This document shows, piece by piece, positions 10,443 to 25,938 of a stretch of 64,000 nucleotides of DNA (the first letter of the stretch is position 1; every line of letters starts with the position of its first letter). Location of the stretch: the NCBI GenBank assembly GCA_963825325.1, contig CAWGSU010000005.1:119736-183735 (forward strand). Direction: 5' to 3'. Source of the stretch: an uncultured Actinomycetes bacterium (GTDB lineage: Bacteria; Actinomycetota; Thermoleophilia; Gaiellales; JAICJC01). The notes under the pieces were generated by a model. It made no database searches. It was not told the origin of the DNA and saw only the letters and a list, made by a program, of their open reading frames with translations. A program made the translations under genes and the position numbers.

Positions 10443-11193
10443 CCCGGAAGACTTCGGCTGCGGCGAGGTGGAAGCCGGCGGGCATTCCGGCCGCCGCGAA
10501 GGCCGCCGCGATCTCCTCCATCTCGCCGATCCAGCGCCAGCCCTTGGCCGCGGCCGACCGCGCGGCGCGCGCGTATTCGGCCTCGAGCTCGGGCAGCGAC
10601 AGCGCCCATTCCTGCACGAGCTGCGCTTCGACACCCTCCGCCCGCGCCACGGCGCGGGCGGCCAGCACGAGCGCGGCCGTGCCCTTCGTCCACGCTGCAT
10701 AGGTCATCTTCACCGCCGAGGCGTCCCCGGGCCGCTCCGAGACGACCCGCGGCTCGAGCGTCGATCCGGCGAACGCCTCGGCGACCGCCGGTGCCGCCGC
10801 GCCGGAGAGGTAGAGCCGGGTCGTCCCCGCCGTCCGCGGGGGCGGCCCGATGATGCCGCCGTCGACGAATGTGGCGGCGACGTCCGCGGCGAGCGCGCGC
10901 GCCGTTGCCGGAGAGACCGCGTTTGCGTCGACATAGATGCCCCCGAACCCGCGCACGGCGCCTGCGACCGCCGCGGCCGCGTGCGGCGGGCACACCGACA
11001 CGATCAGGTCACACGTCTGGGCGAGCGCGGCGATCGAGCCGGCGTCGCGCAGCCCCGCCGCCGCCGCCCGTGCCGCGGTCTCCGGGCTGCGGCCGGCGGA
11101 CGCCCAGGCAACGTCGCGCCCGCGGGCGCGCAGCGCCGCACCGACGGCGGCGCCCATCTCGCCCGGGTGCAGGATGCCGATCGCCGACGTCAT
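10423..11193 (-). CDS. NAD(P)-dependent oxidoreductase (6PGD/HIBADH-like N-terminus, DUF1932-like C-terminus)
   Basis: 'ILHPGEMGAAVG', 'FVDGGIIGPPP', 'SAVKMTYAAWTKG', 'KGWRWIGEMEEI'; TACGAT-N7-ATG(11193). Confidence 0.8.
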   Translation of the reverse strand: MTSAIGILHPGEMGAAVGAALRARGRDVAWASAGRSPETAARAAAAGLRDAGSIAALAQTCDLIVSVCPPHAAAAVAGAVRGFGGIYVDANAVSPATARALAADVAATFVDGGIIGPPPRTAGTTRLYLSGAAAPAVAEAFAGSTLEPRVVSERPGDASAVKMTYAAWTKGTAALVLAARAVARAEGVEAQLVQEWALSLPELEAEYARAARSAAAKGWRWIGEMEEIAAAFAAAGMPAGFHLAAAEVFRAMGPRP

Positions 11194-11258
11194 CGCCCCC
11201 ATCGTAGATCGCCCGCCGAGGGGTGAACGGGCGCCGGCCGGGGCCGATAACCGCGGTG

Positions 11259-12626
11259 ATGGCGGCACATCTTCGTCCTGCGTCCGAGCCGGCGCCGCAG
11301 ACCTTCGCGGTGGGCGAGGTCGTCGCCGCGCTCTCCCACGCGCTCGACCTGACCGAGGGCCAGCCGCCCGGGCACGCCCAGCGCAGCTGCCTGATCGCGC
11401 TGCGCCTGGCCGACGCGCTCACGCTCGTCACCGAGGAGCGTACGAGCCTCTACTACGCCATGCTGCTGAAGGACGCGGGCTGCTCGTCGTCGGCCGCGCG
11501 CATGGCCGAGATCTTCGCCGCCGACGACCTCGAGCTGAAGCGGATCGCCAAGCGCATCGACTGGGCGAGCCCGCGCCACGCCGTCGGGTTCGTCGCCCGC
11601 GAGGCGGGCCGGAACGACTCGAGCCTCGTGCGGGCGCGGCGGGTGCTGACCGCCCTGCGCGACATGGCGCGCGAGGGCAATCTGGCCGTCGAGACGCGCT
11701 GCGACCGCGGCGCGCGCATCGTCACGATGCTCGAGTTCCCCGCCGCCGCCGCCGACGCCGTCCGCTACCTCGACGAGCACTGGGACGGCCGCGGCCAGCC
11801 CTTTCGGCTGCGCGGCGACGCGATCCCGATCCTCGCCCGCATCGCCTGCCTGTCGCAGACGGCCGATGTGTTCATCGCCCAGGACGGCCTCGGGGCCGCG
11901 CGCGACATGGTGCGCGCGCGTCGCGGGCGCTGGTTCGACCCCGCGGTCGCAGACGCGTTCCTGGCGTTGCCCGACTCCGACCCCCTCTTCGCCGACCTCG
12001 CCGGCGAGCGGTTCGCCGCCGCACCCGCTGACGGCGGGCTCGTCGCGGCCGACGACGGCCGCATCGACCGCATCGCCGAGGCGTTCGCCTCGATGATCGA
12101 CGCCAAGAGCCCCTTCACCGCGAGCCATTCCGACCGCGTCGCCGAGTACGCCGTCGGCATCGGCCGCGAGCTCGGCTTCGGCGCCGCGCAGCTGCGCGAC
12201 CTGCGCCGCGCCGGGCTCCTGCACGACATCGGCAAGCTGGGCGTCTCCAACTCGATCCTCGACAAGCCGGGCCGCCTGACCGACGCCGAGTACGAGCTCG
12301 TGAAGCGCCACCCGCGCGACACCGAGGCGATCCTGCAGCACGTGCCGATCTTCTCCGGCCTCGCGGTCGCCGCCGGCGCCCACCACGAGCGCGTCGACGG
12401 GCGCGGCTACCACCGCGGCATCGCCGGCGAGGCGATCCCGGCCATCAGCCGGGTGCTCGCCTGTGCCGACGTCTACGACGCGCTCACCGCCAGGCGCCCT
12501 TATCGCGATCCCATGCCGTCCCCGGATGCGCTCGCACTCATGCGCGGCGATGTCGGGGCGGCGTTCTTCGCCGAGCCGTTCGCAGCCCTCTGCGCGCACG
12601 TCGCCGCGCTGCCGCTCGCGGCGTAG
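11259..12626 (+). CDS. Tandem HD-GYP domain protein (putative cyclic-dinucleotide phosphodiesterase)
   Basis: First domain degenerate ('LLKDAG', 'HWDGRGQP'); second domain 'HSDRV', 'LLHDIGK', 'HHERVDGRGYH'; GATAAC-N7-ATG. Confidence 0.85.
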   Translation: MAAHLRPASEPAPQTFAVGEVVAALSHALDLTEGQPPGHAQRSCLIALRLADALTLVTEERTSLYYAMLLKDAGCSSSAARMAEIFAADDLELKRIAKRIDWASPRHAVGFVAREAGRNDSSLVRARRVLTALRDMAREGNLAVETRCDRGARIVTMLEFPAAAADAVRYLDEHWDGRGQPFRLRGDAIPILARIACLSQTADVFIAQDGLGAARDMVRARRGRWFDPAVADAFLALPDSDPLFADLAGERFAAAPADGGLVAADDGRIDRIAEAFASMIDAKSPFTASHSDRVAEYAVGIGRELGFGAAQLRDLRRAGLLHDIGKLGVSNSILDKPGRLTDAEYELVKRHPRDTEAILQHVPIFSGLAVAAGAHHERVDGRGYHRGIAGEAIPAISRVLACADVYDALTARRPYRDPMPSPDALALMRGDVGAAFFAEPFAALCAHVAALPLAA

Positions 12627-12628
12627 AG

Positions 12629-14626
12629 CTACGCGGCTTCGGGCAGCGCCGCGGGCGGTTCCGCGTGTGCGGCCGCCGCCGCGGGCTCGGAGCCCTGCAG
12701 GCCGTGCGGCGTCTTCTCCCACATGAACGGGCGCCGGATCAGCTGCTCGAGCGCGCGCCAGGCCGCGATCGAGTGCAGCACCCAGTAGAGCGGCGCAAGC
12801 ACGGCGAAGGGCAGCAGGTGGAACATGCGCCGGCGCAGGACGGCGAGCGCGTTCAGCCCGATCATGCTCAGGTTGCCGACGACGAGGCTGAGCTCGGCAA
12901 GGGTGTCGAACGGGTGCGGGAAGAGGTGTGAGATCGCGGTGCCCGGCACGACGCCGAGCAGCCACACCGCCGTCAGCAGCCACAGGATCGGCGTCGCCAG
13001 GAACGTGGCCGGGGTGCCGGCGATCAGGAGCACGAAGCCGGCCAGTCCGCGCAGGCCCGCCTCGCGCGTGAACCGCACCGGCCGGCGCGAGTGCACGATC
13101 GCCGTCTGCATGTAGCCCTTGATCCAGCGGGTGCGCTGGCGCACGAAGGGCCGCAGCTGCGAGCAGGCCTCCTCGTAGGTGGTCGAGGCGATGATGCCGA
13201 CCGTGTAGCCCTCGGCGGCCGCGCGCAGGCCGAGGTCCGCGTCCTCGGTGACGTTGAACGCGTCCCACCCGCCCAGGCTGCGCAGGCGATCGGCGCGGAA
13301 GTGATTGGACGTCCCGCCGAGCGGGATCGGCAGCGACAACCGGTCGAGCCCAGGCAGCATGTAGTCGAACCAGTACGAGTACTCGAGCGTGAACATGCGC
13401 GTGAGCACGTTCTGGCGGGCGTTGAAGTAGTTGAGCCGCGCCTGCACGCACACGAGGTCGTCCGCGCCGTGGCGGAACGCCGCCACGGCGTCGCGCAGCT
13501 GGCCGGCCTCGGGGCGGTCCTCGGCGTCGTAGATCACCACGTACTCGCCGCGGGCGAAGAAAAGGCCCACGTTGCACGCCCGCGGCTTCGTTTTCGGCTG
13601 GCCGTCGGGGATGAGGATGAAGCGCACGGTGTCGGGCGGGCCGGCCGCGCGCGCGGCTGCGATCGTCTCGGTGTCGTCCTCCTCCATCAAGAGCAGGATC
13701 TCGAGCTTCTCCTGCGGGTAGTCCAGCCGGCGCAGGTGCTCGATCAGCCCGCCGACGACGTTCGCCTCGTGGTAGACGGGCACGAGCACGGTGTAGAGCG
13801 GCAGATCGCGGTCGGCCACGCGCTCGGGCGCGGCGCGGCGCGCGCGGCGGCGGGTGGAGCGGATGCCGGCGAGCGACGCCACGAGCTTGAAGAGGACGCC
13901 CGCGACGAACACCGTCTGGAGGATGACGACGGCCGCGATCATGAGGCCGCCCGGAGCGAGCACCGCGGCCGAAACCAGGCCGGCGACCGACAGGCCGAGC
14001 GCGACCCGCTGCCCGCGCGAGAGGCCGCCCTTCGCCGAGCGGGCGGGGTCGCGGTCGGAGAGGCCGTAGGCCGCCTCGTGCCGCAGCTCCTGCACGAATC
14101 GGGCCCGGATCGCGGTCAGCACGTCCCAGTCGGTGGTGGCCGAGAAGGTGATCGCGCCGACGTCTTCGCCCAGCTCGGGCGGGCACGCGGCCATGACGCG
14201 GCGGCGCAGGTCGGCGGTCGGCGGCTCCGACGTGGCCACGTGCAGGGTGCCTTCGTGAAGCGCGACGGGGATCCAGCCCTCGATCGCCATCTGCTCCGGG
14301 TCGAAGCGCCCGGCGACGGCGGGGTCAGGGGGCGCATTCACCAGGTCGACGAAGCCGCAGCCCCAGATCTCGGCCAGCACCCCGTAGAGCGCCTGACGGG
14401 GGACGAGGCCGGCGGCGAGCAGCACGCGTCCGAGCCGCTCGCCGGTGCGGCGATGCGCCTCGAGCGCCCATTCGAGCTGCTCGGCCGCGAGCAGCCCGCG
14501 GTCGACGAGGGCGGTGCCGAGCTGCTCGCGCAGCGGAATGACCGTGCCACCCGCGCGCGCATGCATGGGCACGTACCCGTCGGTGGGGCGGCGCGGCGCT
14601 CTTTGTGTGCTTCCGGAACGATCCAT
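12629..14626 (-). CDS. Processive GT2 glycosyltransferase with N-terminal MshEN/GSPII_N domain (start uncertain)
   Basis: Tandem MshEN-like motif 'QLGTALVDRGLL...LEWALEAH' + 'RLGRVLLAAGLV'; 'YDAED', 'TEDADLG', 'QRTRW'; TM helices. True start may be 14565 or further downstream. Confidence 0.85.
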   Translation of the reverse strand: MDRSGSTQRAPRRPTDGYVPMHARAGGTVIPLREQLGTALVDRGLLAAEQLEWALEAHRRTGERLGRVLLAAGLVPRQALYGVLAEIWGCGFVDLVNAPPDPAVAGRFDPEQMAIEGWIPVALHEGTLHVATSEPPTADLRRRVMAACPPELGEDVGAITFSATTDWDVLTAIRARFVQELRHEAAYGLSDRDPARSAKGGLSRGQRVALGLSVAGLVSAAVLAPGGLMIAAVVILQTVFVAGVLFKLVASLAGIRSTRRRARRAAPERVADRDLPLYTVLVPVYHEANVVGGLIEHLRRLDYPQEKLEILLLMEEDDTETIAAARAAGPPDTVRFILIPDGQPKTKPRACNVGLFFARGEYVVIYDAEDRPEAGQLRDAVAAFRHGADDLVCVQARLNYFNARQNVLTRMFTLEYSYWFDYMLPGLDRLSLPIPLGGTSNHFRADRLRSLGGWDAFNVTEDADLGLRAAAEGYTVGIIASTTYEEACSQLRPFVRQRTRWIKGYMQTAIVHSRRPVRFTREAGLRGLAGFVLLIAGTPATFLATPILWLLTAVWLLGVVPGTAISHLFPHPFDTLAELSLVVGNLSMIGLNALAVLRRRMFHLLPFAVLAPLYWVLHSIAAWRALEQLIRRPFMWEKTPHGLQGSEPAAAAAHAEPPAALPEAA

Positions 14627-14699
14627 GGGTTTGCACCGGTTGCTGTACGCAACAACCGATACCCTGGAGATCGGCGGAGACGCCGCGGAGTGAAGGCCG

Positions 14700-15749
14700 C
14701 TAGGTGGCGGGCGCCTGCCGTGGCAGCGCGGCGCGCACCGCGGGCGCGACCGCGCCGCCGTAGAGCTCGATCGCGCGCATGACGTCGCGGTGGGGCATCG
14801 TGCCGACGCTCATCTGGGCGAGGACGCGGTCGTGGCCGAAGATCTCGTGCTGCGCGAGGATCTTCTCGATCACCTCCTGCGGGCTGCCGACGATCAGGGC
14901 GCCGTCGGGCGCGCGCATCGCGTCGAACTGCTCACGGGTCATCGCCGGCCAGCCGCGCTCGCGCCCGATGCGGGTCATCATGTTGGCGTAGCCGGGGAAG
15001 TACTCCGCCGCCGCCCGCTGCGACGTCTCGGCGACGTAGGCATGCGAGTTGATGCCCACGGGCAGCCCGGCCGGGTCATGGCCCGCCAGGCGCGCCGACT
15101 CGCGGTAGAGGTCGACCAGCGGCCCGAACCGCGCCGGGGCGCCGCCGATGATCGCAACCGCAAGCGGCAGGCCGAGCGTGCCTGCGCGGACGACGGACTG
15201 GGGCGTCCCGCCCACGGCGATCCAGACCGGCAGGGGGTCCTGCACGGGGCGCGGGTAGACGCCGAGGTCGGTGATGGGCGGCCGGTGCCGACCGGACCAC
15301 GTCACGCGCTCGGAGGCGCGCAGGGCGAGCAGGAGGTCGAGCTTCTCCGCGAACAGCTCGTCGTAGTCCTCCAGGTCGTAGCCGAAGAGCGGGAACGACT
15401 CGATGAACGACCCCCGGCCCGCCATGATCTCGACCCGTCCGCCCGTGAGCAGGTCGAGGGTCGCAAACTGCTGGAACACCCGCACCGGGTCGTCGGAGCT
15501 GAGCACGCTGACCGCGCTCGTGAGCCGGATGCGCGTGGTGCGCTCGCCCGCGGCCGCAAGCGCGACCGCGGGAGCCGACACGGCGAAGTCGGCCCGGTGG
15601 TGCTCGCCGACGCCGAAGACGTCGAGCCCGGCCTGCTCGGCCAGGTCGACCTCCTCCATCAGCTCGCGCAGCCGCTGCCCGGCCGAGATGGTGCGTCCGG
15701 TGGCGGGGTCGGGCGCGAGCTCGGCGAACGTGTAGACGCCCATCTGCAT
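14700..15749 (-). CDS. LLM-class flavin-dependent oxidoreductase
   Basis: '[10 protein letters not shown]', '[10 protein letters not shown]', '[17 protein letters not shown]', 'GRGSFIES'. Confidence 0.9.
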
Positions 15750-15813
15750 CCGTCGGCCGACCGTAGCACTCGCCGGGCGCGGGGCGGCGCGGAGAAATAC
15801 TTGCATCCGGCCG

Positions 15814-15842
15814 TTGACGCACTCCCCCGTACAGGGGATAAC
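15814..15842 (+). promoter_or_regulatory. Sigma70-type promoter, probably leaderless
   Basis: TTGACG-N17-GATAAC-N6-ATG(15849). Confidence 0.45.
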
Positions 15843-15848
15843 CGAAGT

Positions 15849-16364
15849 ATGAGAACGCATCACATATCCGTATTCGGCGTCGCGACCATGGTCGCGATCC
15901 TGATCGCCACCGGCCTCGTCACGCGCCTGGCCGAGGTCGCGCTCGTCTCGGCGGTGCGCCTGACGAGCGTAGGCGGGGGCGGTCTGCTCACGCCCGCGAA
16001 CCTGGTGGGAGCCGATCACCGCCACGTCACGTATGCGCTCGTGCGCCTGCTGCTGCCGGGGCTGCTCGTCCAGGCGTTGCTCGTGAAGATCGTCGTGTCG
16101 TCGTATCGCGGCCTGCACATCACCTACCTCGCCACGGTGGCCGTGCTCGCGCTGTTCGACATCGGCGCGCTGGCGCTCGCGACCGTCGTCGCGCACACGT
16201 TCGCGACCACCGCGTCGCTGCATGCGCTGACGACGCTCTCGCCGGCGGCGATCTACGTGTCGGTGGCCATCTCGGCCGCGACGCTGATCGGCGAGGCCTT
16301 CGTGCTGCAGGGCCTCGTGGAGATGCCGGTCGGGCGCTATCCCGCACTCGCCAGCCGGGCCTGA
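15849..16364 (+). CDS. Hypothetical multi-pass membrane protein
   Basis: 171 aa with about four hydrophobic segments; promoter-like element upstream; no family recognised. Confidence 0.6.
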
Positions 16365-16388
16365 GGGCCCGGCCGGCGCGGCGGCGGG

Positions 16389-16715
16389 TCAGCCGCGGCG
16401 GATGATGTAGCGCGCTGTCGACACGTACAGCGTGCCGTCCTCGTCGACCCGCATCGGGTCGGGGCGGCCGCTGCCGCCGATCGTGCCGTCGGGCAGGATC
16501 AGCTCGTGGACGACGGCACGCTCGCGCCCCTCCTGGTCGTAGTAGGCCACCCTGCGGCTGACGGCGTCGGTGGGATGTGCGGACGACGTCGACGGGCGCC
16601 CGCGCACCAGCTCGCGCTCGGAGAGCTCGCCGGTGCGGGTGCGCTCCCAGTAGCGCCCGCGCTCGAAGATCGCGCGCAGGTCGTCTGGGCTAACGTAGGC
16701 CTTGCGAAGGGGCAT
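16389..16715 (-). CDS. Hypothetical protein (108 aa, 'VHE...PDGTIGGSGRPDP' motif)
   Basis: Non-shadow amino-acid composition with a motif-like C-terminal half; function unknown. Confidence 0.65.
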   Translation of the reverse strand: MPLRKAYVSPDDLRAIFERGRYWERTRTGELSERELVRGRPSTSSAHPTDAVSRRVAYYDQEGRERAVVHELILPDGTIGGSGRPDPMRVDEDGTLYVSTARYIIRRG

Positions 16716-16726
16716 GGGAGAGAGTG

Positions 16727-16957
16727 ATGGAGCGCGAACTCAGCGAGATCCTCGGGTACTACCTCGATCGCGAGTACGACCTGGACGCGTTGCAGGGCGC
16801 GCTCGCGGAGCTGACATGGAGCAATTTAGAAGCACCGCGGGCCGCGCACAGGATCGAGTTTCTGATCGGCGAGGCGATCGCCGGCCGCCTGTGGCTCGAC
16901 GACCTGCGCTCCGAGCTCGACCAGGTGCGCCGATCGCTCCTGCTCGCGCTCGCCTAG
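16727..16957 (+). CDS. Small acidic helical hypothetical protein (76 aa)
   Basis: GGGAG RBS 6 nt before ATG 16727; Leu/Glu/Asp-rich. Confidence 0.55.
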   Translation: MERELSEILGYYLDREYDLDALQGALAELTWSNLEAPRAAHRIEFLIGEAIAGRLWLDDLRSELDQVRRSLLLALA

Positions 16958-16966
16958 AGGCGCGGC

Positions 16967-18157
16967 TCAGAACGTCTCCGCACCGGTGGGCTCGATGTGC
17001 GCCTGCCCGTCCATGCGCTGGCGCAGCCGGCTGAGCTCGCGGTAGATCGTGCGGCGGGCGCGGTTCTGGTTTCCGAGCGGGCGGTGCTCGGGGAGGCTGT
17101 GCCACGGGTTGTAGGCCAGGTTGCCCGCGAACGCGAGCTGCGCTGCCGAGTCGAACCGCTGCGGCGGCAGCACGAGTTCCGCGACAGCGACCGGCGTCGA
17201 CTCGGACTCGCTCCAGCGCACCGCGGCGTTCTCGATCGGCATCCGCCACGGGTCGCCCTGGAGCTGGATCAGGAAGTCGAAGCGCAACTCGCGCTGCGCG
17301 AGCGTCGCCGCCATCGCGTCGCGCAGGTAGTTCGGCCCGGGTGGCCTGGGGATCGGTGTGCGCGCGTCCGACGCCGGCCGCACGAGGTAGTGCATCGCCT
17401 GCTCCGGTCCAAGCAGGTAGGCGACGCAGCTCCAGTAGGTCACCTCGAGCGGGCTCGTGTTCAGGCGCGCGTACAGGCCCTGCATGAGCCCGTCGAGCAG
17501 ATGGGAGTCCAGCGGGTTTATGAAGTACCAGACCGGCGTTCCGGCGAGCAGTTGCCGCTGCAGCTTCGCGTTCTCGGTCACGTTCGGCGTCGTGAAGGTC
17601 GGCGCGCTGATGCCAGTGAAATCCTGGGTGAAGCGTTCGTCGTCCATGAGCTTTTCGCCCTCGACGCCCATGAGCTTGATCCCGATGCTCAGGACGCCGT
17701 TGTCCCGCGGGTCGGGCGGCGCGAGCGGCCCCGGCCCGGCGAAGCGCACCCAGGCCGGATACGTGCGCCCTGGCTGGAACACGCCGTGGCGATACCGCGG
17801 CGCGAGGTCTTCGCGGACACGCAGCTCGCCGCGCACGACGCCGTAGGTCTTGGTGTTGCCGGCCCGCAGGGCGCCGCCGTGGGGATACTGCCGGTGCAGG
17901 AACGCCGACATGGCCGCGACGATCGCGGCCGTGGCCGCCTCCTCGCCCGGGACGGCCCGCTCCTCGGCGGGCTCGAGGCCCTCCGGATCCGAGCGCAGGA
18001 GGCCGATCAGCGCCTGGGTGGCGGCCGCGAGCGGCTCCTGCGCCACGCGGTCAAAGCCGTCGCGGAAGTACGGATCGAGGCGCCGCTCGGCGTTTGCGAG
18101 CGCGACCAGCACGTCGCAGAACGCGCGCTTGCATCTGAGCGGGTCGAGCGGCCCCAC
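16967..18157 (-). CDS. Catalase-related heme protein
   Basis: 'RAGNTKTYGVVRG', 'YPAWVRFA', 'SIGIKLMGV', 'LRFDFLIQ', 'YNPWHSLPEHRPLG', proximal 'RARRTIY'. Confidence 0.8.
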   Translation of the reverse strand: MGPLDPLRCKRAFCDVLVALANAERRLDPYFRDGFDRVAQEPLAAATQALIGLLRSDPEGLEPAEERAVPGEEAATAAIVAAMSAFLHRQYPHGGALRAGNTKTYGVVRGELRVREDLAPRYRHGVFQPGRTYPAWVRFAGPGPLAPPDPRDNGVLSIGIKLMGVEGEKLMDDERFTQDFTGISAPTFTTPNVTENAKLQRQLLAGTPVWYFINPLDSHLLDGLMQGLYARLNTSPLEVTYWSCVAYLLGPEQAMHYLVRPASDARTPIPRPPGPNYLRDAMAATLAQRELRFDFLIQLQGDPWRMPIENAAVRWSESESTPVAVAELVLPPQRFDSAAQLAFAGNLAYNPWHSLPEHRPLGNQNRARRTIYRELSRLRQRMDGQAHIEPTGAETF

Positions 18158-18174
18158 GGGCGTATCATGCCCCC
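18158..18174. promoter_or_regulatory. Compact bidirectional promoter with overlapping -10 boxes
   Basis: TATCAT(18163-18168)-N6-GTG(18175) on +; CATGAT(18169-18164)-N6-GTG(18157) on -. Confidence 0.5.
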
Positions 18175-18552
18175 GTGGTCACCTCGACGCCGGGGAAGCT
18201 GCTCGTCGCGGCGCGGTTCCTGATCGGGGGCGGGGCGTTCGCAGCCCCCGTGCTCAGCCTGCGCGTCGGCGGCATCGACCCGCGGCCGCGGCCGCAGTCG
18301 GCCTACGTCATGCAGCTCGTCGGCGTCCGCGATGCGCTGCTCGGCATCGGCGTGCTCGCGAGCTCTGGCGAGGCGCGCCGGCTGTGGTGGAGCGTCGGCA
18401 TCGCATGCGATCTGGCCGATGCCGCGTCAGCGATGGCCGAGCTCTCCAGCGGGCGCGTGCCGCGCAACGGCCGCACGGCGGCCGTGCTGCTCGCCTCGCC
18501 GTTCCTCGGCGCCGCGCTCGGCGCGGCGGCGCTCGCCGCGGGCGACGACTGA
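18175..18552 (+). CDS. DUF4267-like small membrane protein (paralog 1)
   Basis: 'AARFLIG...YVMQLVGVRDALLG...WWSVGIACDLADA'; three to four TM helices. Confidence 0.7.
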   Translation: MVTSTPGKLLVAARFLIGGGAFAAPVLSLRVGGIDPRPRPQSAYVMQLVGVRDALLGIGVLASSGEARRLWWSVGIACDLADAASAMAELSSGRVPRNGRTAAVLLASPFLGAALGAAALAAGDD

Positions 18553-18798
18553 CGTGCCACGGACGTTCCCGGGCAGGACGCTCGTCGCGATCCGGCTCTC
18601 GCTGGGCGCATCCGCGTGGCTCGCGCCCGGGCTGACCCTGTGCGCGTTCGGCCTCGACGTCGAGGAGTACCCCGAGGCCGCCTACGCGATGCGGCTGTTC
18701 GGCGCGCGCAACGCGACGCTGGGCGTCGGCCTGCTCGCGAGCGCGGGGGATGACCGCAGGCTGTGGTGGAAGCTCGGGATCGCATGCGATCTGGCCGA
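18380..18798 (+). repeat. Direct repeat within the tandem paralogs (18380-18419 vs 18759-18798)
   Basis: GGCTGTGGTGGAGCGTCGGCATCGCATGCGATCTGGCCGA vs GGCTGTGGTGGAAGCTCGGGATCGCATGCGATCTGGCCGA. Confidence 0.75.
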
Positions 18799-18931
18799 CG
18801 TGGCGGCGGCGCTCATCTCGGGCCGGGCGGGCTACGTCCCGCGTGACCCGTGGACGGCCGTGCGCCTGGTCGGCGCGGGCCTGATCGCCACGGGGCTCGG
18901 CATCGCGGCGCTCGCCGAGGACGATGTCTAG
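18554..18931 (+). CDS. DUF4267-like small membrane protein (paralog 2)
   Basis: GTG 1 nt after the paralog-1 stop; 'AIRLSLG...YAMRLFGARNATLG...WWKLGIACDLADV'. Confidence 0.7.
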   Translation: MPRTFPGRTLVAIRLSLGASAWLAPGLTLCAFGLDVEEYPEAAYAMRLFGARNATLGVGLLASAGDDRRLWWKLGIACDLADVAAALISGRAGYVPRDPWTAVRLVGAGLIATGLGIAALAEDDV

Positions 18932-20331
18932 GGCGTGAGCGTGCCCAGGTAGCGCAGCGCCCGGAGCCCGGGCAGAAAGAAGTAGGCGCCGCCGCGCACG
19001 GTGACGAACTCCGGCAGGGCGGTGACGCGCCGGCGCACCGGGCGCGCCGGGATGGTGAAGGTCCCGCCCAGCGGGCTGTGGCGCCCGATTAGCGGATCGG
19101 CGTCGTCGTAGAGCGTGGCGAACTTGGGATTCCCCACCCACGCCCGCTGGACGAACTCGAACTGACGGGCGATGTTCGCGCCGAGGCAGATGAAGTGCAG
19201 GCCGCGGTCGACCCCGTCTGCGATCGCGGTGCCGCCGCGCAGACCGTCGACGTCGGCCGGCGGCCCGTACTTGCGACCGCGGCGCAGCAGCCGGTGGCGG
19301 CGGTTGACGGCGAGCGAGCCGGGCGTGCCGGGGCTCGGGTCGAGCGAGTCGCGCGGGTTGGATCGGCGCACATGCGCGCCGATGGGGCAGCGCATCCCGT
19401 CCGGGTCGATGCGGGCATAGCCGAAGCCGTTCGCGGTCGCATGGGCCGGGTCGTCGCCGTCGGGCGCCTCGACGAGGGGAGCGCCGCTCGGCCACCGGCC
19501 CACCATCTTGGCGGCCAGGGCGATGGGGTCGCCGTCGCCGGCGGCGGCGCGTGCGAACTCCCAGAACCCGGCCACGTCCTGCCGCATCTGGCGCATGACG
19601 AGGAACGTGCCGTTGCGGCCGAGATCGTGCTCGCCCGTGGCCGGATCGGGCGGCAGCACCGCGCCGGGGTCGGCGGCTGCGGGCACGAGCGGCCGGTCGG
19701 TCAGAAGGTCGTACTCGTTCGGGTAGCCAAGCACGAACTCGCCGGCGCGCACGACGTGTTCGGCCGGGCCGGTGTGGCCGAGGCCGGCGATGATCGGTTG
19801 GGAGATCCCATCGCGGAAGCCGAAGTGCTCGTGGTCGCCGATCGCCTCGGTGTCGAGCCGCGCGAGCTCGGTCACACCGCCGCGCTTGTAGCGGGCCGCG
19901 ATCGGCCGCGCGAGCTCCGCGAGCGTCCTCGCGTCCTTCGCGTAGAGGAGCAGCAGCAGGTCGATGGGCTCGGTGTCGGGACCGCCCCAGTCCCACGCCC
20001 GCGGGGCGCTCTCGCCGACGTCGCCGAGCACCCGGCTGCGTGCAGGCGCCGTCATCCCGTCGGTGAACTCGGGCGGGAAGCTCTCGAGCGCGGCGTGCGA
20101 GAGCTCGAGCCGGCGCAGCCCCGACGCCGTGACGGCCAGGTGCACCGCCCGCTCGGGCGCATGCGCGGCCGCCGGCGTGATCGCCGCGGCGGTGTCGGCG
20201 ACGAAGCGCCGGGCCGCGGCCGGGTCGCGGATACCGAGCAGCACAAAGCGGGCGGCCGCGAGGTGCGCGTATCCGCGCACGACGAGCCCCTGGATGTCAT
20301 CGAGCTCGAGCGCGGTCTCGGGCGCGCTCAC
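18928..20331 (-). CDS. DyP-type (dye-decolorizing) peroxidase
   Basis: 'LDDIQG', 'EHFGFRDGISQP', 'GAHVRRSNPR', 'RLLRRGRKYG', 'GLHFICLGANIARQFEFVQ'; GTGA overlap with the upstream gene. Confidence 0.9.
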   Translation of the reverse strand: MSAPETALELDDIQGLVVRGYAHLAAARFVLLGIRDPAAARRFVADTAAAITPAAAHAPERAVHLAVTASGLRRLELSHAALESFPPEFTDGMTAPARSRVLGDVGESAPRAWDWGGPDTEPIDLLLLLYAKDARTLAELARPIAARYKRGGVTELARLDTEAIGDHEHFGFRDGISQPIIAGLGHTGPAEHVVRAGEFVLGYPNEYDLLTDRPLVPAAADPGAVLPPDPATGEHDLGRNGTFLVMRQMRQDVAGFWEFARAAAGDGDPIALAAKMVGRWPSGAPLVEAPDGDDPAHATANGFGYARIDPDGMRCPIGAHVRRSNPRDSLDPSPGTPGSLAVNRRHRLLRRGRKYGPPADVDGLRGGTAIADGVDRGLHFICLGANIARQFEFVQRAWVGNPKFATLYDDADPLIGRHSPLGGTFTIPARPVRRRVTALPEFVTVRGGAYFFLPGLRALRYLGTLTP

Positions 20332-21608
20332 AGGAGCTCCAGCCACCGCTCGGCCTGGGTCGCGGTCATGGGGCCGTGCAGCCCCGCGCGGATGGCCGCG
20401 TTCTGCTCGATGTTCGCGTTCGTCAGGTTCCCGTAGGCCGAATACCAGACGTGCACCGGCAGCTGGTGGGTGTGGATGTAGTGCTTGAACGCGCCCTCGT
20501 CCCAGGCGCCGTCGAAGAAGAGCCAGTTCGTGCGCGGGTAGCCGATGCCGTTGGAGAAGATCGCGTTCAGGCCCCACGCCACCTTGTCGATGAAGTCGCC
20601 CATGTAGGTCTCGAGGCTGCCGTCGTAGTTGCTCGCAAAGATCAGCCGGCTGTGGCCGTCGAGGAACACCCAGCGGGCGAAGTGGATCGTCTTCACGCCG
20701 GCGAGGTCGGCGTGCGCGAACAGGTGCCGCGTCGCCCAGTCGGCGATCCAGAGCAGGCCGATCGACGTGCCCCGCCGGAACGGGCCCGGCTTGACCCGGC
20801 CGAGGGCGGTGAACGCATTCTGCGCGAGGTGATCCTCGAGTTCTGCGATCATCGCCACGCGGGCCGGATCGGGGCGGATGTCGGGCGCGGCATCGCTGCG
20901 CTCGTGGATGCGCAGAAGGACGAGCCACGGGGGCGCGGCGACGGCCAGGAGCGGCGAGAGCACGAGCAGCACCGCGGGCACCCGCACGAGGTCGAGCCCG
21001 TCGCGCAGCCGCGCGCCCAGATCGGGGCCCGGAGCGGGCGTGCGCGCGAACGCGAGCCGCTCCTCGCCCGCGACGAACGCCTGCACGAGCGCGCGCGCCT
21101 CGGTCGCCGAGCGGCGCTCGAGGTCGGGCCGGGCCGAGTCCAGGTAGCCCTCGATCGCGTCGCGCAGGAGCGCCTCGTCGCGCACCCGGGCGACCGTCCG
21201 CCCGGGCCGGTTGACGTAGGACGTCCCGGCGCGCACGGCCCGGGCGCGCAGGAACGCGTTCCGGGCGGCGGCGCCGGCCGGCAGCTCGGGGTAGCCGGTG
21301 CAGTGGCTGAACACGGCGTCGATCCCGTCGCCCTGCGACTCTGCGAGCTCGGCCAGGTGGTCGTCCTGGGCTCCGTCCACGTCGCTCATGTAGATCAGCG
21401 TCGAGGGGTCGCGCGGGTCGACCGGCGGCACCAGCACCAGCCGGGCGAAGTGCACGCCGGAGAGGCTTCGAAACGCGATCACGCGCTCGTTCGACACGCC
21501 GTCGCCCATCGAGTGCAACAGCTGCTCCACCGCCCGCTCGCGCCCCTCCCGCACCTCGGCGACGACCGTCACGGCGACCTGCGCCGCCCACGTCTCGGCC
21601 GCGCTCAT
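20328..21608 (-). CDS. DyP-associated hypothetical protein with internally duplicated 'HFAR' domain
   Basis: 'GVHFARLVLV...LIYMSDVDG' and 'TIHFARWVFL...LIFASNYDG'; ATGA overlap at the start. Confidence 0.75.
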   Translation of the reverse strand: MSAAETWAAQVAVTVVAEVREGRERAVEQLLHSMGDGVSNERVIAFRSLSGVHFARLVLVPPVDPRDPSTLIYMSDVDGAQDDHLAELAESQGDGIDAVFSHCTGYPELPAGAAARNAFLRARAVRAGTSYVNRPGRTVARVRDEALLRDAIEGYLDSARPDLERRSATEARALVQAFVAGEERLAFARTPAPGPDLGARLRDGLDLVRVPAVLLVLSPLLAVAAPPWLVLLRIHERSDAAPDIRPDPARVAMIAELEDHLAQNAFTALGRVKPGPFRRGTSIGLLWIADWATRHLFAHADLAGVKTIHFARWVFLDGHSRLIFASNYDGSLETYMGDFIDKVAWGLNAIFSNGIGYPRTNWLFFDGAWDEGAFKHYIHTHQLPVHVWYSAYGNLTNANIEQNAAIRAGLHGPMTATQAERWLELL

Positions 21609-22075
21609 CCCTCGCTTGCGGCCGGGAATTGGAGGACGAAGTCGAGCAGCTTTCTGTGGTCCCAGAAGACGATCCCGAGGTAGAGATCCGGCGCCACGAG
21701 GCGCATCTCGTCGCGGATCCAGTGCGCGATGAGCGACGTGTGCGAGTAGTCGAGGACGATGCACTCCTGGCCGTCGAACCAGCTCGCCTGCTTGTACACC
21801 TTGGCCTGCACGGCGTGGATCCCGGTCAGAAGGACGCGGTTTTCGAGCTCGCCGCGGTCGCGGTGAAAGACCTTGCCCTTCCACCCGAGCAGGTGGATCA
21901 GCTTCGCGGCGATCCCGGTCAGCTCCGTGCCGGGCGCGACCAGCACCGTGCCGTCGGCCTGGCCGTCGGGGATGTCCCCGGCCGGGCTCTGGCGGAAGAG
22001 CTCGTCGAGCTGGGCCTGTGACATGGCTTCGAGAGCGGCGAGGTCGATCAGCGTCTCAGGCACCGGCGCTCTCAC
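21605..22075 (-). CDS. Hypothetical beta-rich protein ('WKGKVF...LDY...IRDEMR')
   Basis: Coupled to both neighbours; start either 22075 or 22063. Confidence 0.7.
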   Translation of the reverse strand: MRAPVPETLIDLAALEAMSQAQLDELFRQSPAGDIPDGQADGTVLVAPGTELTGIAAKLIHLLGWKGKVFHRDRGELENRVLLTGIHAVQAKVYKQASWFDGQECIVLDYSHTSLIAHWIRDEMRLVAPDLYLGIVFWDHRKLLDFVLQFPAASEG

Positions 22076-23984
22076 CGCCCACGAACGACCAGGGCTTGAA
22101 GCCGTTTGCGAGCTCGCCCAGCGACGGCCCCAGCTCGGGGTAGTGGCGCCGGAGCACGTCGACGAAGCGCGTGTTCTCGACCCAGTCGATCCCGGCCTGC
22201 GTATACGTCGACGCCGTGTAGTCGTCGGTCAGGAAGCGGTCGCTGTTGATCCGCCGCGACGCCATCAGGATGAAGATCCGAAACGCGGTGTCGCTGAACG
22301 CGAACCCCTGCGGCCGCTTCTCGGCGAACATGCCGACGATCACGTCCAGCCGCTCGATGTCGCCGCCGTACAGCGACCGCATCTTCTCGGCCAGCGCAGG
22401 GTCGTCGGTGACGTCGCCGAAGTCCTGCGCCGGGCGCAGGTGCAGCAGGCGGCGGAACTCGTTGTAGCGCGGCACCCCGAGCTCGCGCGAGCGCAGGATG
22501 TCGGTCGCCGCGATGTCCATCAGCTTGCCGTCGGGCCGGGTGAACTCCTGCAGGAAGCGGGGGAAATTGTTGAGGACGATCGCGCCCGGGTTGGCGACGC
22601 CGAACGAGTACAGGAGGTCGCGCATGCCGATGCGATCGAGCACCGCCTGCGAGTTCGGGCCGGCCAGCTCGGGCAGCGTGCGCCGCTCGAGCTCGCGGCC
22701 GTCGGCCGCCGAGCGGAACGTGTAGTCGTCGGCGATCAGCGGATGCATCCGGTAGACGATCGTGAACTCCTCGGTGAGCGCGTAGGGCACGCCGAAGTGG
22801 TCGTGCGCAGAGCCGGGGATGCCGCTCACGATCTCGCTCGCGCTGACGCGCCCGAACGCCTTCTTCACGCGCTCACCGGCGATCCCGTACCAGTTCGCGC
22901 GCATGCCGATCTCCATGGTGGGATGCGCGATCACGGCCGGCGTCCACTCGACCGTGTGGATCTTCGCGAGCAGCGCTGAGAGGATCAGGCGGGCATGGCC
23001 GAAGAGCTGCTCGTCGTCCCAGGCGGGGTAGTCCTGGGCCAGCCGGTCGCAGATCGCGTTGTGCTCGAGCGTGAACAGGTTCACGAGCATCTGCAGGCCG
23101 ATCCAGAAGCCCGGCACCTGGCGCGGATCGAGCTTGGGATCGGTCGGCAGGGGCACCGTCCCGTCGGCGCCGACGTGGAGCTTCCCGCCCGCGCCCGTGC
23201 GCACCATCTGCGCCACGGCGGGGTCGGTGCCGTACAGCTGCGAGCCGTCCCACCAGTGCGTGGCCGTGTTCAGGAAGGTCGGGGGGAAGGTCGCGCCCGG
23301 CGGCCGCGTCGTGTCGGGCAGCGTCCGCAGCACCGTGAGCGGCGGCGCCGGCCAGGGGTCGCCCGGCTCGAGCGGGAGCTCATACGTCGCGCTCGGGTCG
23401 CCGCGCCCGTGGCTGAACCAGTCCTTGATCATGAACTGGATCCACGACGCGGCGAACAGGTTGAGCGTTTCGGCCGGCAGAAACTCGGTGCGCGTCAGGA
23501 GCTCGCGGCTGACGAGGCGCGGATTCGGCTCGAGGATGGTCGCCTCGGTCTCGTGCGCCGTCGCCTCGAGCGGGACGTTGCGGCCGAAGCGCGAGCCCGC
23601 CATGCCCATGCTCGGCTGGGTGAGGTCGTTGTAGACGCCCTGCTCGGCGCGGGTGACGAGGAACGCGGGGTCGAGCGGCGGCACGGGCGGCGTGTTCACG
23701 GCCGGCTGATCCGAGGTGTCGTACAGGTTCTCCTGGCGCAGGACGTTGCGCAGGCCGATCAGCACCGCGAGCCCGAGCGGCGTCGGCAGCTTGTCCCAGC
23801 CCACGCAGCGGTCTGCCGCCGCGGCGGCCCCGTCGTACAGCCGCCAGCCGAGCGTGTCGCGGTAGCGCGATCCCGACACCGGGTCGGGCCCGTCGGAGGC
23901 GGCGAGGCGCTCCCAGATCGCCCGCCCGGCCAGGACGCCGCAGCCGACGACGATGCCGCTGCGCAGGAGGCGCGCCGCGCTCAT
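22056..23984 (-). CDS. Animal-type heme peroxidase/cyclooxygenase superfamily protein, alpha-dioxygenase-like
   Basis: 'AASWIQFMIKDWFSH', 'THWWDGSQLYG', 'AKIHTVEWT', 'LTEEFTIVYRMHPL', 'GVPRYNEFRR', 'FILMASRR'. Confidence 0.88.
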   Translation of the reverse strand: MSAARLLRSGIVVGCGVLAGRAIWERLAASDGPDPVSGSRYRDTLGWRLYDGAAAAADRCVGWDKLPTPLGLAVLIGLRNVLRQENLYDTSDQPAVNTPPVPPLDPAFLVTRAEQGVYNDLTQPSMGMAGSRFGRNVPLEATAHETEATILEPNPRLVSRELLTRTEFLPAETLNLFAASWIQFMIKDWFSHGRGDPSATYELPLEPGDPWPAPPLTVLRTLPDTTRPPGATFPPTFLNTATHWWDGSQLYGTDPAVAQMVRTGAGGKLHVGADGTVPLPTDPKLDPRQVPGFWIGLQMLVNLFTLEHNAICDRLAQDYPAWDDEQLFGHARLILSALLAKIHTVEWTPAVIAHPTMEIGMRANWYGIAGERVKKAFGRVSASEIVSGIPGSAHDHFGVPYALTEEFTIVYRMHPLIADDYTFRSAADGRELERRTLPELAGPNSQAVLDRIGMRDLLYSFGVANPGAIVLNNFPRFLQEFTRPDGKLMDIAATDILRSRELGVPRYNEFRRLLHLRPAQDFGDVTDDPALAEKMRSLYGGDIERLDVIVGMFAEKRPQGFAFSDTAFRIFILMASRRINSDRFLTDDYTASTYTQAGIDWVENTRFVDVLRRHYPELGPSLGELANGFKPWSFVGGESAGA

Positions 23985-24379
23985 GCCGGGCTCGCCGTCT
24001 TGCGCGCTCCGCAGCTCGCCGTCAGGGCGAGCGCCGTGTTGAGCGCCGAGATCGAGGTGGCGATCACGGCCGAGCGCGCCGGGATCTGGCGCGTCAGCCC
24101 GGCGAGCGCGGCGGCAGCGGTGTCGCTCGCGTGGATGACCGGGGCCACCCGCACGGCCGCAGCGCGCACGTCGCCTTCGGGGAGCAGGAGCTCGCAGCCG
24201 ATCAGCACGGTGCGGATCCCGAACATGCGGAAGACGTAGGTGATCGCCTGGTTGTCGGTGCGCGCGACGCCCAGGTTGCGTTCAAGGACGGTCGGCGCAA
24301 CCAGCGCAGTGGATCCGTTTGCGATCCGGATCAGTGCCAGTGCGACTCGTGCGAACCCCGGAGCGCGACCCGTGCGCAT
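23981..24379 (-). CDS. DUF4267-like small membrane protein (paralog 3)
   Basis: 'LIRIANG...YVFRMFGIRTVLIG...IHASDTAAA'; ATGA overlap with the heme peroxidase. Confidence 0.65.
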   Translation of the reverse strand: MRTGRAPGFARVALALIRIANGSTALVAPTVLERNLGVARTDNQAITYVFRMFGIRTVLIGCELLLPEGDVRAAAVRVAPVIHASDTAAAALAGLTRQIPARSAVIATSISALNTALALTASCGARKTASPA

Positions 24380-24443
24380 CTCCGACCCCCCTTGCCCCTG
24401 CCTCGGGCATTGGCGATTTGCGCGCCAATCCTACACGGCGAGC

Positions 24444-24935
24444 CTACTTCAGGAACTGCCAGACCAGAAGCGCAGTCAGGTAGATGAGCGCGTAGCCGAG
24501 CACGAGGCCCTGGACGACGAGCGGTGCGATCTCGCGCACGCGGAAGCCGGACGTGCGCAGCCACACGAGCTTGACAGCCTCGCCCGAGAACATGAGGCCG
24601 CAGAACAGCGAGACGAGCCCGCCCGGGCCGGGCACGGCCAGCAGGGCATAGAGCATGCCGATATGGGCGGCGTTGTTGAAGACGACGAACCCCATCGCGA
24701 TCGTCTCGCGCTCGATCAGGCGCTCGCCGATCGCGGCGATCAGGCCGACCTCGGCCACCCCGATCAGCACGAGCTCCGCGACGCGGATCCCCGACGGCGC
24801 GTGCAGCGTGCGGTCGAGGGCGTGCGCGAAGGCGATGTAGGCGCACACGAACGCGGCCGCCTTGACCGCCGTCTCCGCCCAGCCGAGCGGGCCGTAGTCG
24901 CCGACATGCCACGCATTCTCGCTCGTCGTTGCCAC
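24444..24935 (-). CDS. Hypothetical membrane protein
   Basis: About four to five TM helices; 'WHVGDYGPLGWAETAVK'; start uncertain. Confidence 0.6.
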   Translation of the reverse strand: MATTSENAWHVGDYGPLGWAETAVKAAAFVCAYIAFAHALDRTLHAPSGIRVAELVLIGVAEVGLIAAIGERLIERETIAMGFVVFNNAAHIGMLYALLAVPGPGGLVSLFCGLMFSGEAVKLVWLRTSGFRVREIAPLVVQGLVLGYALIYLTALLVWQFLK

Positions 24936-24963
24936 GGGGCCCGAGCTTACCGTCTGCGGTACC

Positions 24964-25938
24964 TTGCCCCGGGTGGACATCGCCGGCGACATCGGGGGCA
25001 CGCACACGCGCCTCGCGCTCTTCGGTCCCGCCACCGCCGCGCCGGCGGTGGTCGAGGTCTACCCGAGCCGCGACCACGATGGCCTCGAGGCGATGCTGCG
25101 GGCGTTCCTCGCGGCGCATCCCGCGCCGGTGGAGCGGGCCTGCTTCGGCGTCGCCGGCCCGGTCCGCGGCGGCCACGTGCAGACGACCAACCTGGCCTGG
25201 CCCGTCGACGCGGGCAGCATCGCGCGGGTGCTCGGGCTCGACCGGGTCGGGCTCGTCAACGACCTCGTCGCAAACGCGTACGGGATCGCGGAGCTCGGCC
25301 CGGCCGACGTCGCCACCCTGCACGAGGGCGACCCGGCGCTCGGCGGCAGCGCGGCGGTGATCTCGGCCGGCACGGGCCTGGGCGAGGCCGGGCTCTTCTG
25401 GGACGGGTCGCACCACCACGTGTTCCCGAGCGAGGGCGGCCACGCCGACTTCGGCCCGCGCAACGACGCCGAGGTCGCGCTGCACGCACACCTCGCAAAG
25501 CGGCATGCGCACGTGAGCTACGAGCGCGTGTGCTCGGGCATGGGGCTCGTGGCGATCCACTCGTTCCTGGGCGGGTCCGGCGACGATGCCTCGGCGATCA
25601 CCACGGCGGCGCTCGCGGGCAGCGACCCGGTGAGCGTGCGCGCGCTGGACATGATGGTCGAGATCTACGGTGCCGAGGCGGGCAACCTCGCGCTCAAGCT
25701 GCTCGCCACCGGCGGCGTCTACGTCGGCGGCGGAATTGCGCCGCGGATCGTGAGCAAGCTGCGCGAGGGCCCGTTCCTGGACGCCTTTGCACACAAGGGC
25801 CGCCTTGCCGACCTGCTCGCGCGCGTGCCCGTGCACGTGATCCTGAACGAGCGCACCGCCCTGCTGGGAGCGGCGCGGCTCGCCCGCGGTGAGCCGCCGG
25901 GGCTGCACCACCGCGAGCGAGGGGCCGCGCCCGGCTAG
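24964..25938 (+). CDS. glk: Glucokinase
   Basis: 'AGDIGGTHTRL', 'FGVAGPV', 'TNLAW', 'LVNDLVA', 'GTGLGEA', 'SEGGH', 'GGVYVGGGIAP'. Confidence 0.92.
   Translation: MPRVDIAGDIGGTHTRLALFGPATAAPAVVEVYPSRDHDGLEAMLRAFLAAHPAPVERACFGVAGPVRGGHVQTTNLAWPVDAGSIARVLGLDRVGLVNDLVANAYGIAELGPADVATLHEGDPALGGSAAVISAGTGLGEAGLFWDGSHHHVFPSEGGHADFGPRNDAEVALHAHLAKRHAHVSYERVCSGMGLVAIHSFLGGSGDDASAITTAALAGSDPVSVRALDMMVEIYGAEAGNLALKLLATGGVYVGGGIAPRIVSKLREGPFLDAFAHKGRLADLLARVPVHVILNERTALLGAARLARGEPPGLHHRERGAAPG

Follow-up and report, generated by a model that had tools for sequence, protein, structure and literature searches.

Three haem proteins of different folds are encoded within 7.4 kb of DNA from an uncultured bacterium of the Gaiellales, and the locus raises the question of whether they serve one pathway and, if so, what chemistry that pathway performs. 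The genes lie between positions 16967 and 24379 of a 64,000-nucleotide stretch of contig CAWGSU010000005.1 (assembly GCA_963825325.1), which is called the window below. A preliminary description, made from the sequence of the window, had interpreted them as a fatty-acid oxygenation pathway with downstream enzymes that transform the resulting hydroperoxide. Our analysis points to a mobile, membrane-associated module of six genes (A, B, C, D, E, and H) that would make and then consume a fatty-acid hydroperoxide. We give this explanation a probability of roughly 0.55; its chemistry is read from conserved residues and from analogy with related enzymes.

Recurrence of the six genes

The G+C content of the window (71–75%) makes plain lists of open reading frames rich in false frames, and the gene frames were determined by plotting the G+C content at third codon positions and by mapping start codons. 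Genes A to E form an operon on the minus strand within 16967–24379, in which the stop and start codons overlap at every junction. The first gene, A (23981–24379), encodes a small helical membrane protein of 132 residues. It is followed by B (22056–23984; 642 residues), a homologue of the alpha-dioxygenases (alpha-DOX), by C (from 21605 to 22063 or 22075; 152–156 residues), a calycin-like beta-barrel protein of an unnamed family, and by D (20328–21608; 426 residues), a predicted tandem ABM-like protein, also of an unnamed family, with the motif HFAR in each half. The last gene is E (18928–20331; 467 residues), which encodes a DyP-type haem peroxidase. Gene H (16967–18157; 396 residues), encoding a putative catalase-fold haem protein, lies on the same strand outside the operon. 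A and B share the tetranucleotide ATGA at 23981–23984, by which A is translationally coupled to B. C and D also overlap by ATGA, and D and E by GTGA (4 nt each). The start of C overlaps the stop of B by 8 or 20 nt, depending on the start chosen; GTG at 22063 is the likely one, and public gene calls favour the 152-residue protein. The frame plot, the start mapping, and the family searches confirmed the coordinates, layout, operon structure, and gene identities of the preliminary description. Its count of three distinct haem folds in 7.4 kb is likewise correct, H being the least strongly supported of the three.

The preliminary description had named a failure of the genes to co-occur in other genomes as an observation that would refute a shared pathway. 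The six genes do recur, in four phyla. A scan of one genome per species gave at least 575 encoding loci, 80 of which were kept, and presence was counted in 51 loci flanked by 8 kb or more on either side. Every one of the 51 carries E, 48 carry H, and 47 carry C; A is present in 46, as is B, and 38 loci have all six genes. The carriers within the Actinomycetota are Gaiellales, many Streptomyces, Kitasatospora, Acidimicrobiales, Solirubrobacteraceae, and Mycobacteriales, and the others belong to the Chloroflexota (including Ktedonobacteraceae), Dormibacterota, and Cyanobacteriota. The genes are arranged in at least four orders, with the blocks A-B, C-D-E, and H differing in order or orientation between lineages; in Streptomyces, for example, the order is C-D-E-H-A-B on one strand. 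Three distant metagenomic loci carry C, D, and a DyP gene beside an An_peroxidase gene, a gene for a small protein, and an H-like gene.

Within this variation, C-D-E stands out as an invariant core: of 78 loci, 74 have C immediately upstream of D, and of 83 loci, 82 have E immediately after D. The core includes the two families, C and D, that the preliminary description had left without a name. Gene fusions, confirmed by BLAST and Pfam, were also found: two join C to D (P0361 and P0375) and six join D to DyP (P0382, P0472, P0481, P0451, P0396, and P0446). Because these fusions follow the gene order, they speak for a single physical unit of C, D, and E. In two further proteins D is fused to a cytochrome P450 (P0452) or to a phosphodiesterase of the endonuclease/exonuclease/phosphatase (EEP) family (P0366), and these partners are hints to what feeds the D-DyP unit. 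In a close relative (L008, approximately 9536–12700), C and D occupy one long frame with garbled stretches, which probably reflects frameshift errors of long-read sequencing and not a real fusion. No further conserved gene was found in the flanks of the loci, where an SDR gene occurred in only 12 and an alpha/beta hydrolase gene in some.

The distribution of the module is patchy. In a sample of 200 other genomes from the whole phylum, D was detected in one, and in a sample of 120 others from the order it was detected in four; three of the latter belong to the same genus as the window, and the D protein of one of them is 54% identical. A genome of the same genus without the module (G003) retains the flanks of the locus (12056–16351 and 24970–25914 of the window) at 77–79% DNA identity. 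Between the flanks it carries 12.8 kb of unrelated DNA (L095, 1510–14295) with no module gene, in place of window positions 16352–24969. The module is therefore placed in a variable locus, one that seems to be a hot spot of accessory genes. In addition, the tree of B conflicts with taxonomy: the B protein of the window groups with a sequence from the Ktedonobacteraceae, apart from those of other Gaiellaceae, which points to lateral transfer. These observations are consistent with a horizontally mobile module that is patchy even within a genus, a component of the explanation to which the overall probability given above applies.

Proteins of the module

B was assigned by family searches and by its residues. 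It matched PF03098 (An_peroxidase) at 1.3e-97, and residues 56–633 aligned with alpha-DOX of rice (4kvj, 7.8e-116) and Arabidopsis (4hhr, 3.6e-112); the matches to cyclooxygenase (approximately 1e-15) and lactoperoxidase (4e-25) were far weaker. The alignment to the plant enzymes retains the motifs VYRMH, with the catalytic tyrosine and the proximal histidine, MASRR, with the Arg-Arg pair, and AKIHT, with His311. In plant alpha-DOX, the Arg-Arg pair and His311 hold the carboxylate of the fatty acid. Among 63 cluster-linked homologues of B, Tyr379, His382, and His311 (rice numbering) are present in all 63, and Arg558/Arg559 in 62. B thus aligns end to end with the characterised alpha-DOX enzymes of plants and cyanobacteria (rice 4KVJ/4KVK, Arabidopsis 4HHR, CalDOX, LepDOX, and that of Crocosphaera) and has the same tyrosine, proximal histidine, His311, and Arg-Arg pair. 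It differs from them in the distal residue discussed below, in being coupled to a small membrane protein, and in lying inside a six-gene module. The cyanobacterial homologues of B are proven alpha-DOXs and have been reported to cluster with actinobacterial ones, and Kim et al. do not discuss gene clusters for the characterised enzymes (PMC8720084). By family and by residues, the distal histidine excepted, B is a predicted fatty-acid alpha-dioxygenase.

E is classified as a DyP-type peroxidase from its family score and its catalytic residues. It scored 115 bits against TIGR01413 (cut-off 100.5). The matches to DyPs in the PDB ranged from 2e-58 to 1e-19, the closest structure being the Deinococcus radiodurans enzyme DrDyP (8re3, 2e-58); Amycolatopsis DyP2 (4g2c) matched at 3.9e-31. 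E aligns with DrDyP (8RE2/8RE3) and DyP2 (4G2C) over its full length and shares with them the aspartate of GXXDG (Asp174), the proximal histidine (His320), and the distal arginine (Arg350/351), which are retained in 82–83 of 83 homologues. No recognisable signal peptide was found in E. What sets E apart from DrDyP and DyP2 is that it is encoded directly after D and is sometimes fused to it; a partner like D has not been described for any DyP in the literature and database entries examined.

For D, no Pfam family matched up to an E-value of 10 except for weak matches to DUF6454 in six of 23 members, and no ABM family matched. The AlphaFold2 model (predicted local distance difference test score (pLDDT) 80.5, predicted template-modelling score 0.83) has two ferredoxin-like beta-alpha-beta halves, and the succession of its secondary-structure elements agrees with a pair of beta-alpha-beta-beta-alpha-beta domains. 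In a Foldseek search of the model, WhiE-ORFI (9lmn) at 2e-4 was the sole match below 0.001; the high-probability matches were ABM-type proteins (Abx(+)O, 9ltx, and IsdI), interleaved with weaker ones to M16-type proteases and other proteins. The two halves are homologous to each other (hhalign probability 98.3%, E 1.2e-14), so that the HFAR repeat reported in the preliminary description reflects a genuine internal duplication. Between them lies a hydrophobic hairpin of 32 residues (203–234), and the invariant polar residues are His53, His309, Asp329, and Glu333. The model suggests that D is a tandem ABM-like protein (a ferredoxin-like alpha+beta barrel) with a hydrophobic helical hairpin. D resembles WhiE-ORFI (9LMN), the polyketide decarboxylase Abx(+)O (9LTX), and IsdI in its predicted fold of two ferredoxin-like halves, a likeness at the fold level only (TM-score 0.37–0.59, 11% identity); compared with these ABM proteins it adds a helical insert of approximately 120 residues, which carries the hairpin, and invariant HFAR(W) motifs of its own. 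The possibility that D is a diverged DyP was rejected, the hhalign probability against the neighbouring DyP being 0.1%. A profile search covering 1.8 billion cluster representatives placed 3667 representatives at 50% identity in the D family, 1439 of them at E ≤ 1e-30.

C had no match in Pfam or NCBIfam. It had been described as beta-rich, and its AlphaFold2 model is indeed a small beta-barrel (pLDDT 83.3). The best fold match is the uncharacterised protein Tcur_1030 (4mve, TM-score 0.61–0.63), followed by weak matches to FABP and CRABP. The family comprises 4075 clusters of homologues at 90% identity, every one of them named "hypothetical", and its invariant polar residues are Lys68, Asp109, Arg121-Asp-Glu, and Arg125.

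H had no match in Pfam, the Catalase family included, and was linked to the catalases by profile comparison. Against a canonical catalase from a relative, hhalign aligned the H family over 236 collinear columns with a probability of 82.6% and an E-value of 9.6e-6; the match of H to 3e4w, a mycobacterial catalase-related protein, was weak (E 0.025). Several homologues of H carry the NCBI label "catalase family protein". In the alignment, RAGNTKTYG of H corresponds to ERVVHAKGAG of catalase, which places Asn101 at the position of the catalytic histidine. Of 62 homologues, 61 have Asn101 and all have R368-x-x-x-Y372. The alignment ends before R368 and Y372, and their equivalence to the arginine and tyrosine of catalase was taken from the motif and from where it lies, close to the C-terminus. 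Compared with MAP-2744c of Mycobacterium avium ssp. paratuberculosis (3E4W) and with canonical catalases, the similarity of H is weak but collinear and includes the R-x-x-x-Y motif, whereas the distal residue is asparagine; some homologues of H are moreover fused to a C-terminal domain of several transmembrane (TM) segments. Like the catalases, the known catalase-related enzymes that act on hydroperoxides keep the distal histidine. Judging from these residues, H is unlikely to be a true catalase. A canonical catalase (PF00199) was not found in the genome to which the window belongs (4.16 Mb, 97% complete) and was present in two of 12 relatives.

A gave nothing in scans of Pfam and NCBIfam families. 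Its homologues, at 45–54% identity, adjoin B in 52 of 59 loci.

Proposed chemistry and competing explanations

The explanation that we favour assigns the first step to B, paired with A. As a tyrosyl-radical alpha-dioxygenase, B would add O2 to C-2 of a free fatty acid and yield a 2-hydroperoxy fatty acid; this step is inferred from the conservation of the residues and from the activity of the plant and cyanobacterial relatives. The tyrosyl radical would be primed through the haem with lysine or arginine as the distal base. C, D, and E would then form one physical unit, supported by the natural fusions and the invariant adjacency, in which the hairpin of D holds the DyP at the membrane and the calycin-like C is attached. 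This unit would take the 2-hydroperoxide as oxidant or as substrate, which could lead to the 2-hydroxy acid by reduction, to an aldehyde one carbon shorter by oxidative decarboxylation, or to both. DyP2 carries out the oxidative decarboxylation of an alpha-hydroxy acid, and such chemistry would fit a 2-hydroxy fatty acid. H, with a putative tyrosine-ligated haem, would more likely cleave or rearrange the organic hydroperoxide than H2O2; we propose an organic peroxide because the acid-base histidine is missing while the motif for the tyrosine-ligated haem is kept. The absence of a canonical catalase from the genome fits this reading, as does the behaviour of DrDyP, the nearest solved relative of E, which is inactive with H2O2 at neutral pH (PMC10820274).

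Several observations weigh against this proposal, and one of them concerns B. The distal haem histidine of the plant enzymes (His157 in rice) is replaced by Lys187 in B (FMIKDW against FMVHDW). Rice alpha-DOX requires the distal histidine, which serves the activation of the haem by peroxide. Among the 63 cluster-linked homologues of B, the position is occupied by histidine in 29, arginine in 29, and lysine in five, so that half of them carry a basic residue other than histidine. The Arg and Lys variants form one clade of 35 sequences with 98% support (FastTree), which takes in the B protein of the window, its nearest relatives (with arginine), and all Streptomyces, and their other catalytic residues are intact; the forms with histidine belong to cyanobacterial, Chloroflexota, and Gaiellaceae clades. 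To judge from the tree and the alignment, the pattern suggests one ancient substitution maintained by selection, that is, a retained functional variant and not decay. Kim et al. likewise found the distal histidine only partly conserved among alpha-DOX homologues (PMC8720084). Initiation in alpha-DOX consists of the oxidation of the haem by H2O2 (PMC9305512). The fatty-acid oxygenation pathway of the preliminary description is partly supported, by the genes, the operon, the co-occurrence, and the retained residues of B for carboxylate binding and oxidation; Lys187 speaks against it.

The other adverse points concern the partners of B and the assignment of roles. B-like genes were present in seven of the 200 genomes sampled across the phylum, and D in only one of these seven. 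B also occurs elsewhere alone, with A only, or directly ahead of a distant H-like gene. In two loci that lack B (L049 and L067), a gene for a GMC oxidoreductase adjoins D-E, and together with the P450-D fusion this indicates that the core is not specific to the products of alpha-DOX. The roles proposed for C, D, E, and H come from analogy. The hhalign score that connects H with catalase is moderate, and a search of the PDB with the H-family profile returned nothing at E ≤ 0.1. The inactivity of DrDyP with H2O2 at neutral pH, cited above as compatible with the proposal, also weighs against a firm assignment of the peroxidase substrate. As regards transcription, the sequencing runs that contain the window are of soil DNA only, and no RNA run with the Kitasatospora locus was found.

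As an example of B with an H-like partner, genome G123 contains a second homologue of B followed within 3 nt by an H-like gene (29% identity to H; L089, 6862–9758), and A, C, D, and E are absent from its vicinity. The pair may represent a simpler two-gene system of a dioxygenase and a catalase-fold protein.

The competing explanation that survives best shifts the functional centre from B to the membrane-tethered C-D-E unit together with H. These would oxidise something else, for instance a membrane lipid, a quinone, or a precursor of a secondary metabolite, and B would be one of several interchangeable local sources of peroxide, its fatty-acid product being a by-product. We regard this combination as unlikely, though it deserves serious consideration. 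It accounts well for C-D-E being the invariant part of the loci and for the wide occurrence of B without the core. GMC oxidoreductases typically make H2O2, and the presence of one beside D-E where B is missing, like the P450-D fusion, would suit an exchange of peroxide sources. The nearest solved DyP, moreover, has no known physiological substrate (PMC10820274). On the other hand, A and B occur with the core in 46 of the 51 fully flanked loci, and no candidate gene for a second substrate is conserved nearby. In addition, the P450, GMC, and EEP partners fit a shared lipid substrate equally well as a shared oxidant: alpha-DOX, P450, and GMC oxidases are all able to act on alkyl chains, and the EEP family includes lipid phosphodiesterases.

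Alternatively, the module may be catabolic or detoxifying. In plants, alpha-DOX initiates fatty-acid alpha-oxidation (PMC8720084, PMC9305512), and a bacterial counterpart might shorten or remove free fatty acids, among them toxic ones from outside or those with branched chains. E and H would act mainly as scavengers, shielding the cell from the peroxide intermediate, and C and D would carry or chaperone lipids. It is plausible that a genome without a canonical catalase has a dedicated scavenger, the weak fold matches of C are to lipid-binding proteins, and the SDR genes of 12 loci and the alpha/beta hydrolase genes of some could belong to such a route. We nevertheless consider it improbable: the module is not accompanied by a conserved gene for an aldehyde dehydrogenase, an acyl-CoA ligase, or beta-oxidation, the many invariant polar residues of C and D look catalytic rather than carrier-like, and the patchy, accessory distribution argues against a housekeeping role. 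That the haem genes are adjacent merely by chance or local synteny, with no shared function, is very improbable, for although some of the neighbourhood is mere synteny, with flanking genes conserved in close relatives only, the six genes recur rearranged in four phyla, fusions link C, D, and E, and the stop and start codons overlap.

Among the forms that the hydroperoxide pathway could take, a bolder one deserves mention, which we put forward tentatively and at somewhat less than even odds. In it, C-D-E would be an unrecognised three-part enzyme, tethered to the membrane by the tandem-ABM protein D, capped by the calycin-like C, and joined by H with its distal asparagine. It would dock onto interchangeable oxygenases of alkyl chains (alpha-DOX, GMC oxidase, or P450) in a widespread oxylipin or lipid-peroxide pathway, whose products are possibly signals or volatiles. 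The chance that the C-D-E unit by itself represents something new is considerable.

Surroundings of the module and relation to known systems

Two genes of the plus strand lie between E and H. F (18175–18552) and G (18554–18931) each encode 125 residues, and the preliminary description had taken them for two further membrane paralogues facing the operon. This was borne out by a hidden Markov model of the A family, which matched G at 1.2e-27 and F at 1.3e-18, making A, F, and G paralogues; F and G are 48% identical, and hydrophobic segments were found in F. Their similarity to DUF4267 is faint (3e-4 for G and 5e-4 for F), and A is distantly DUF4267-like. F and G are convergent with E, the stop codons of G and E overlap, and the stop of F lies 1 nt ahead of the start of G. 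H is divergent from F, and their annotated starts are just 17 bp apart (18157–18175). The alignments of H with its homologues begin approximately 10–20 residues inside the protein. Because of this short gap and the late beginning of the alignments, the true starts of H and F may be GTG at 18112 and GTG at 18250, respectively, or else the transcripts may be leaderless. Scans of the high-GC DNA of the window for promoters and terminators found none.

The insert at the variable locus (16352–24969) comprises the module and two small genes (16389–16715 and 24444–25034), both seen in close relatives only. The latter encodes a multi-TM protein of 196 residues that belongs to no family; it lies 64 bp upstream of A, and its 5' end and the predicted start of a divergent glucokinase gene (24964–25938) share approximately 70 nt. 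This protein was considered as a relative of the TM domain fused to homologues of H and was rejected, as the two are unrelated. The flanking genes for a luciferase-like monooxygenase, a GT2 protein, the glucokinase, and a GntR protein are syntenic in close relatives only and were for this reason rejected as parts of the module. In one metagenomic locus (L001, 905–4245), the cluster adjoins two genes that resemble a defence pair, SIR2_2 and nSTAND/AAA_16-WD40, and nSTAND and WD40 genes are also near the cluster in L004. A search with PADLOC for anti-phage defence gave no match for any of seven proteins.

The closest known system by sequence is that of the alpha-dioxygenases, and by logic it is a pair from Nostoc punctiforme, a linoleate 10S-dioxygenase and a catalase-related 10S-hydroperoxide lyase (Brash et al. 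2014, cited in PMC9579011). The preliminary description had drawn the same parallel. Its logic is the one proposed here for B and H. The Nostoc pair reportedly consists of a dioxygenase of the cyclooxygenase superfamily and a small catalase-fold protein acting on a hydroperoxide, not on H2O2. The analogy is a loose one in that B is of the alpha-DOX and not the 10S-dioxygenase type and H has asparagine in place of the distal histidine. To the known logic of a dioxygenase with an enzyme that processes its hydroperoxide, the module adds a DyP, a catalase-fold protein with a distal asparagine, and two unnamed families. The cluster was not described in the open papers and preprints searched. The preliminary description knew of no characterisation of this configuration in actinobacteria, which agrees with that result; the module itself is not specific to actinobacteria.

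In the literature examined, bacterial alpha-dioxygenases appear only as stand-alone biocatalysts, and here one of their homologues is part of a conserved multi-haem module. The module occurs in hundreds of species, culturable Streptomyces and Kitasatospora among them, and the existence of cultured carriers makes the hypothesis testable at the bench. The alpha-DOX variants with arginine or lysine in place of histidine offer a natural experiment on the priming of the tyrosyl radical. If the proposed pathway is true, it would place bacterial fatty-acid 2-hydroperoxides in a physiological setting and would point to a natural oxidant or substrate for a subfamily of DyPs, the closest relative of solved structure being inactive with H2O2 at neutral pH. 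It would also give a first functional setting to two large unnamed families, that of D with more than 3600 representatives and that of C with more than 4000 clusters.

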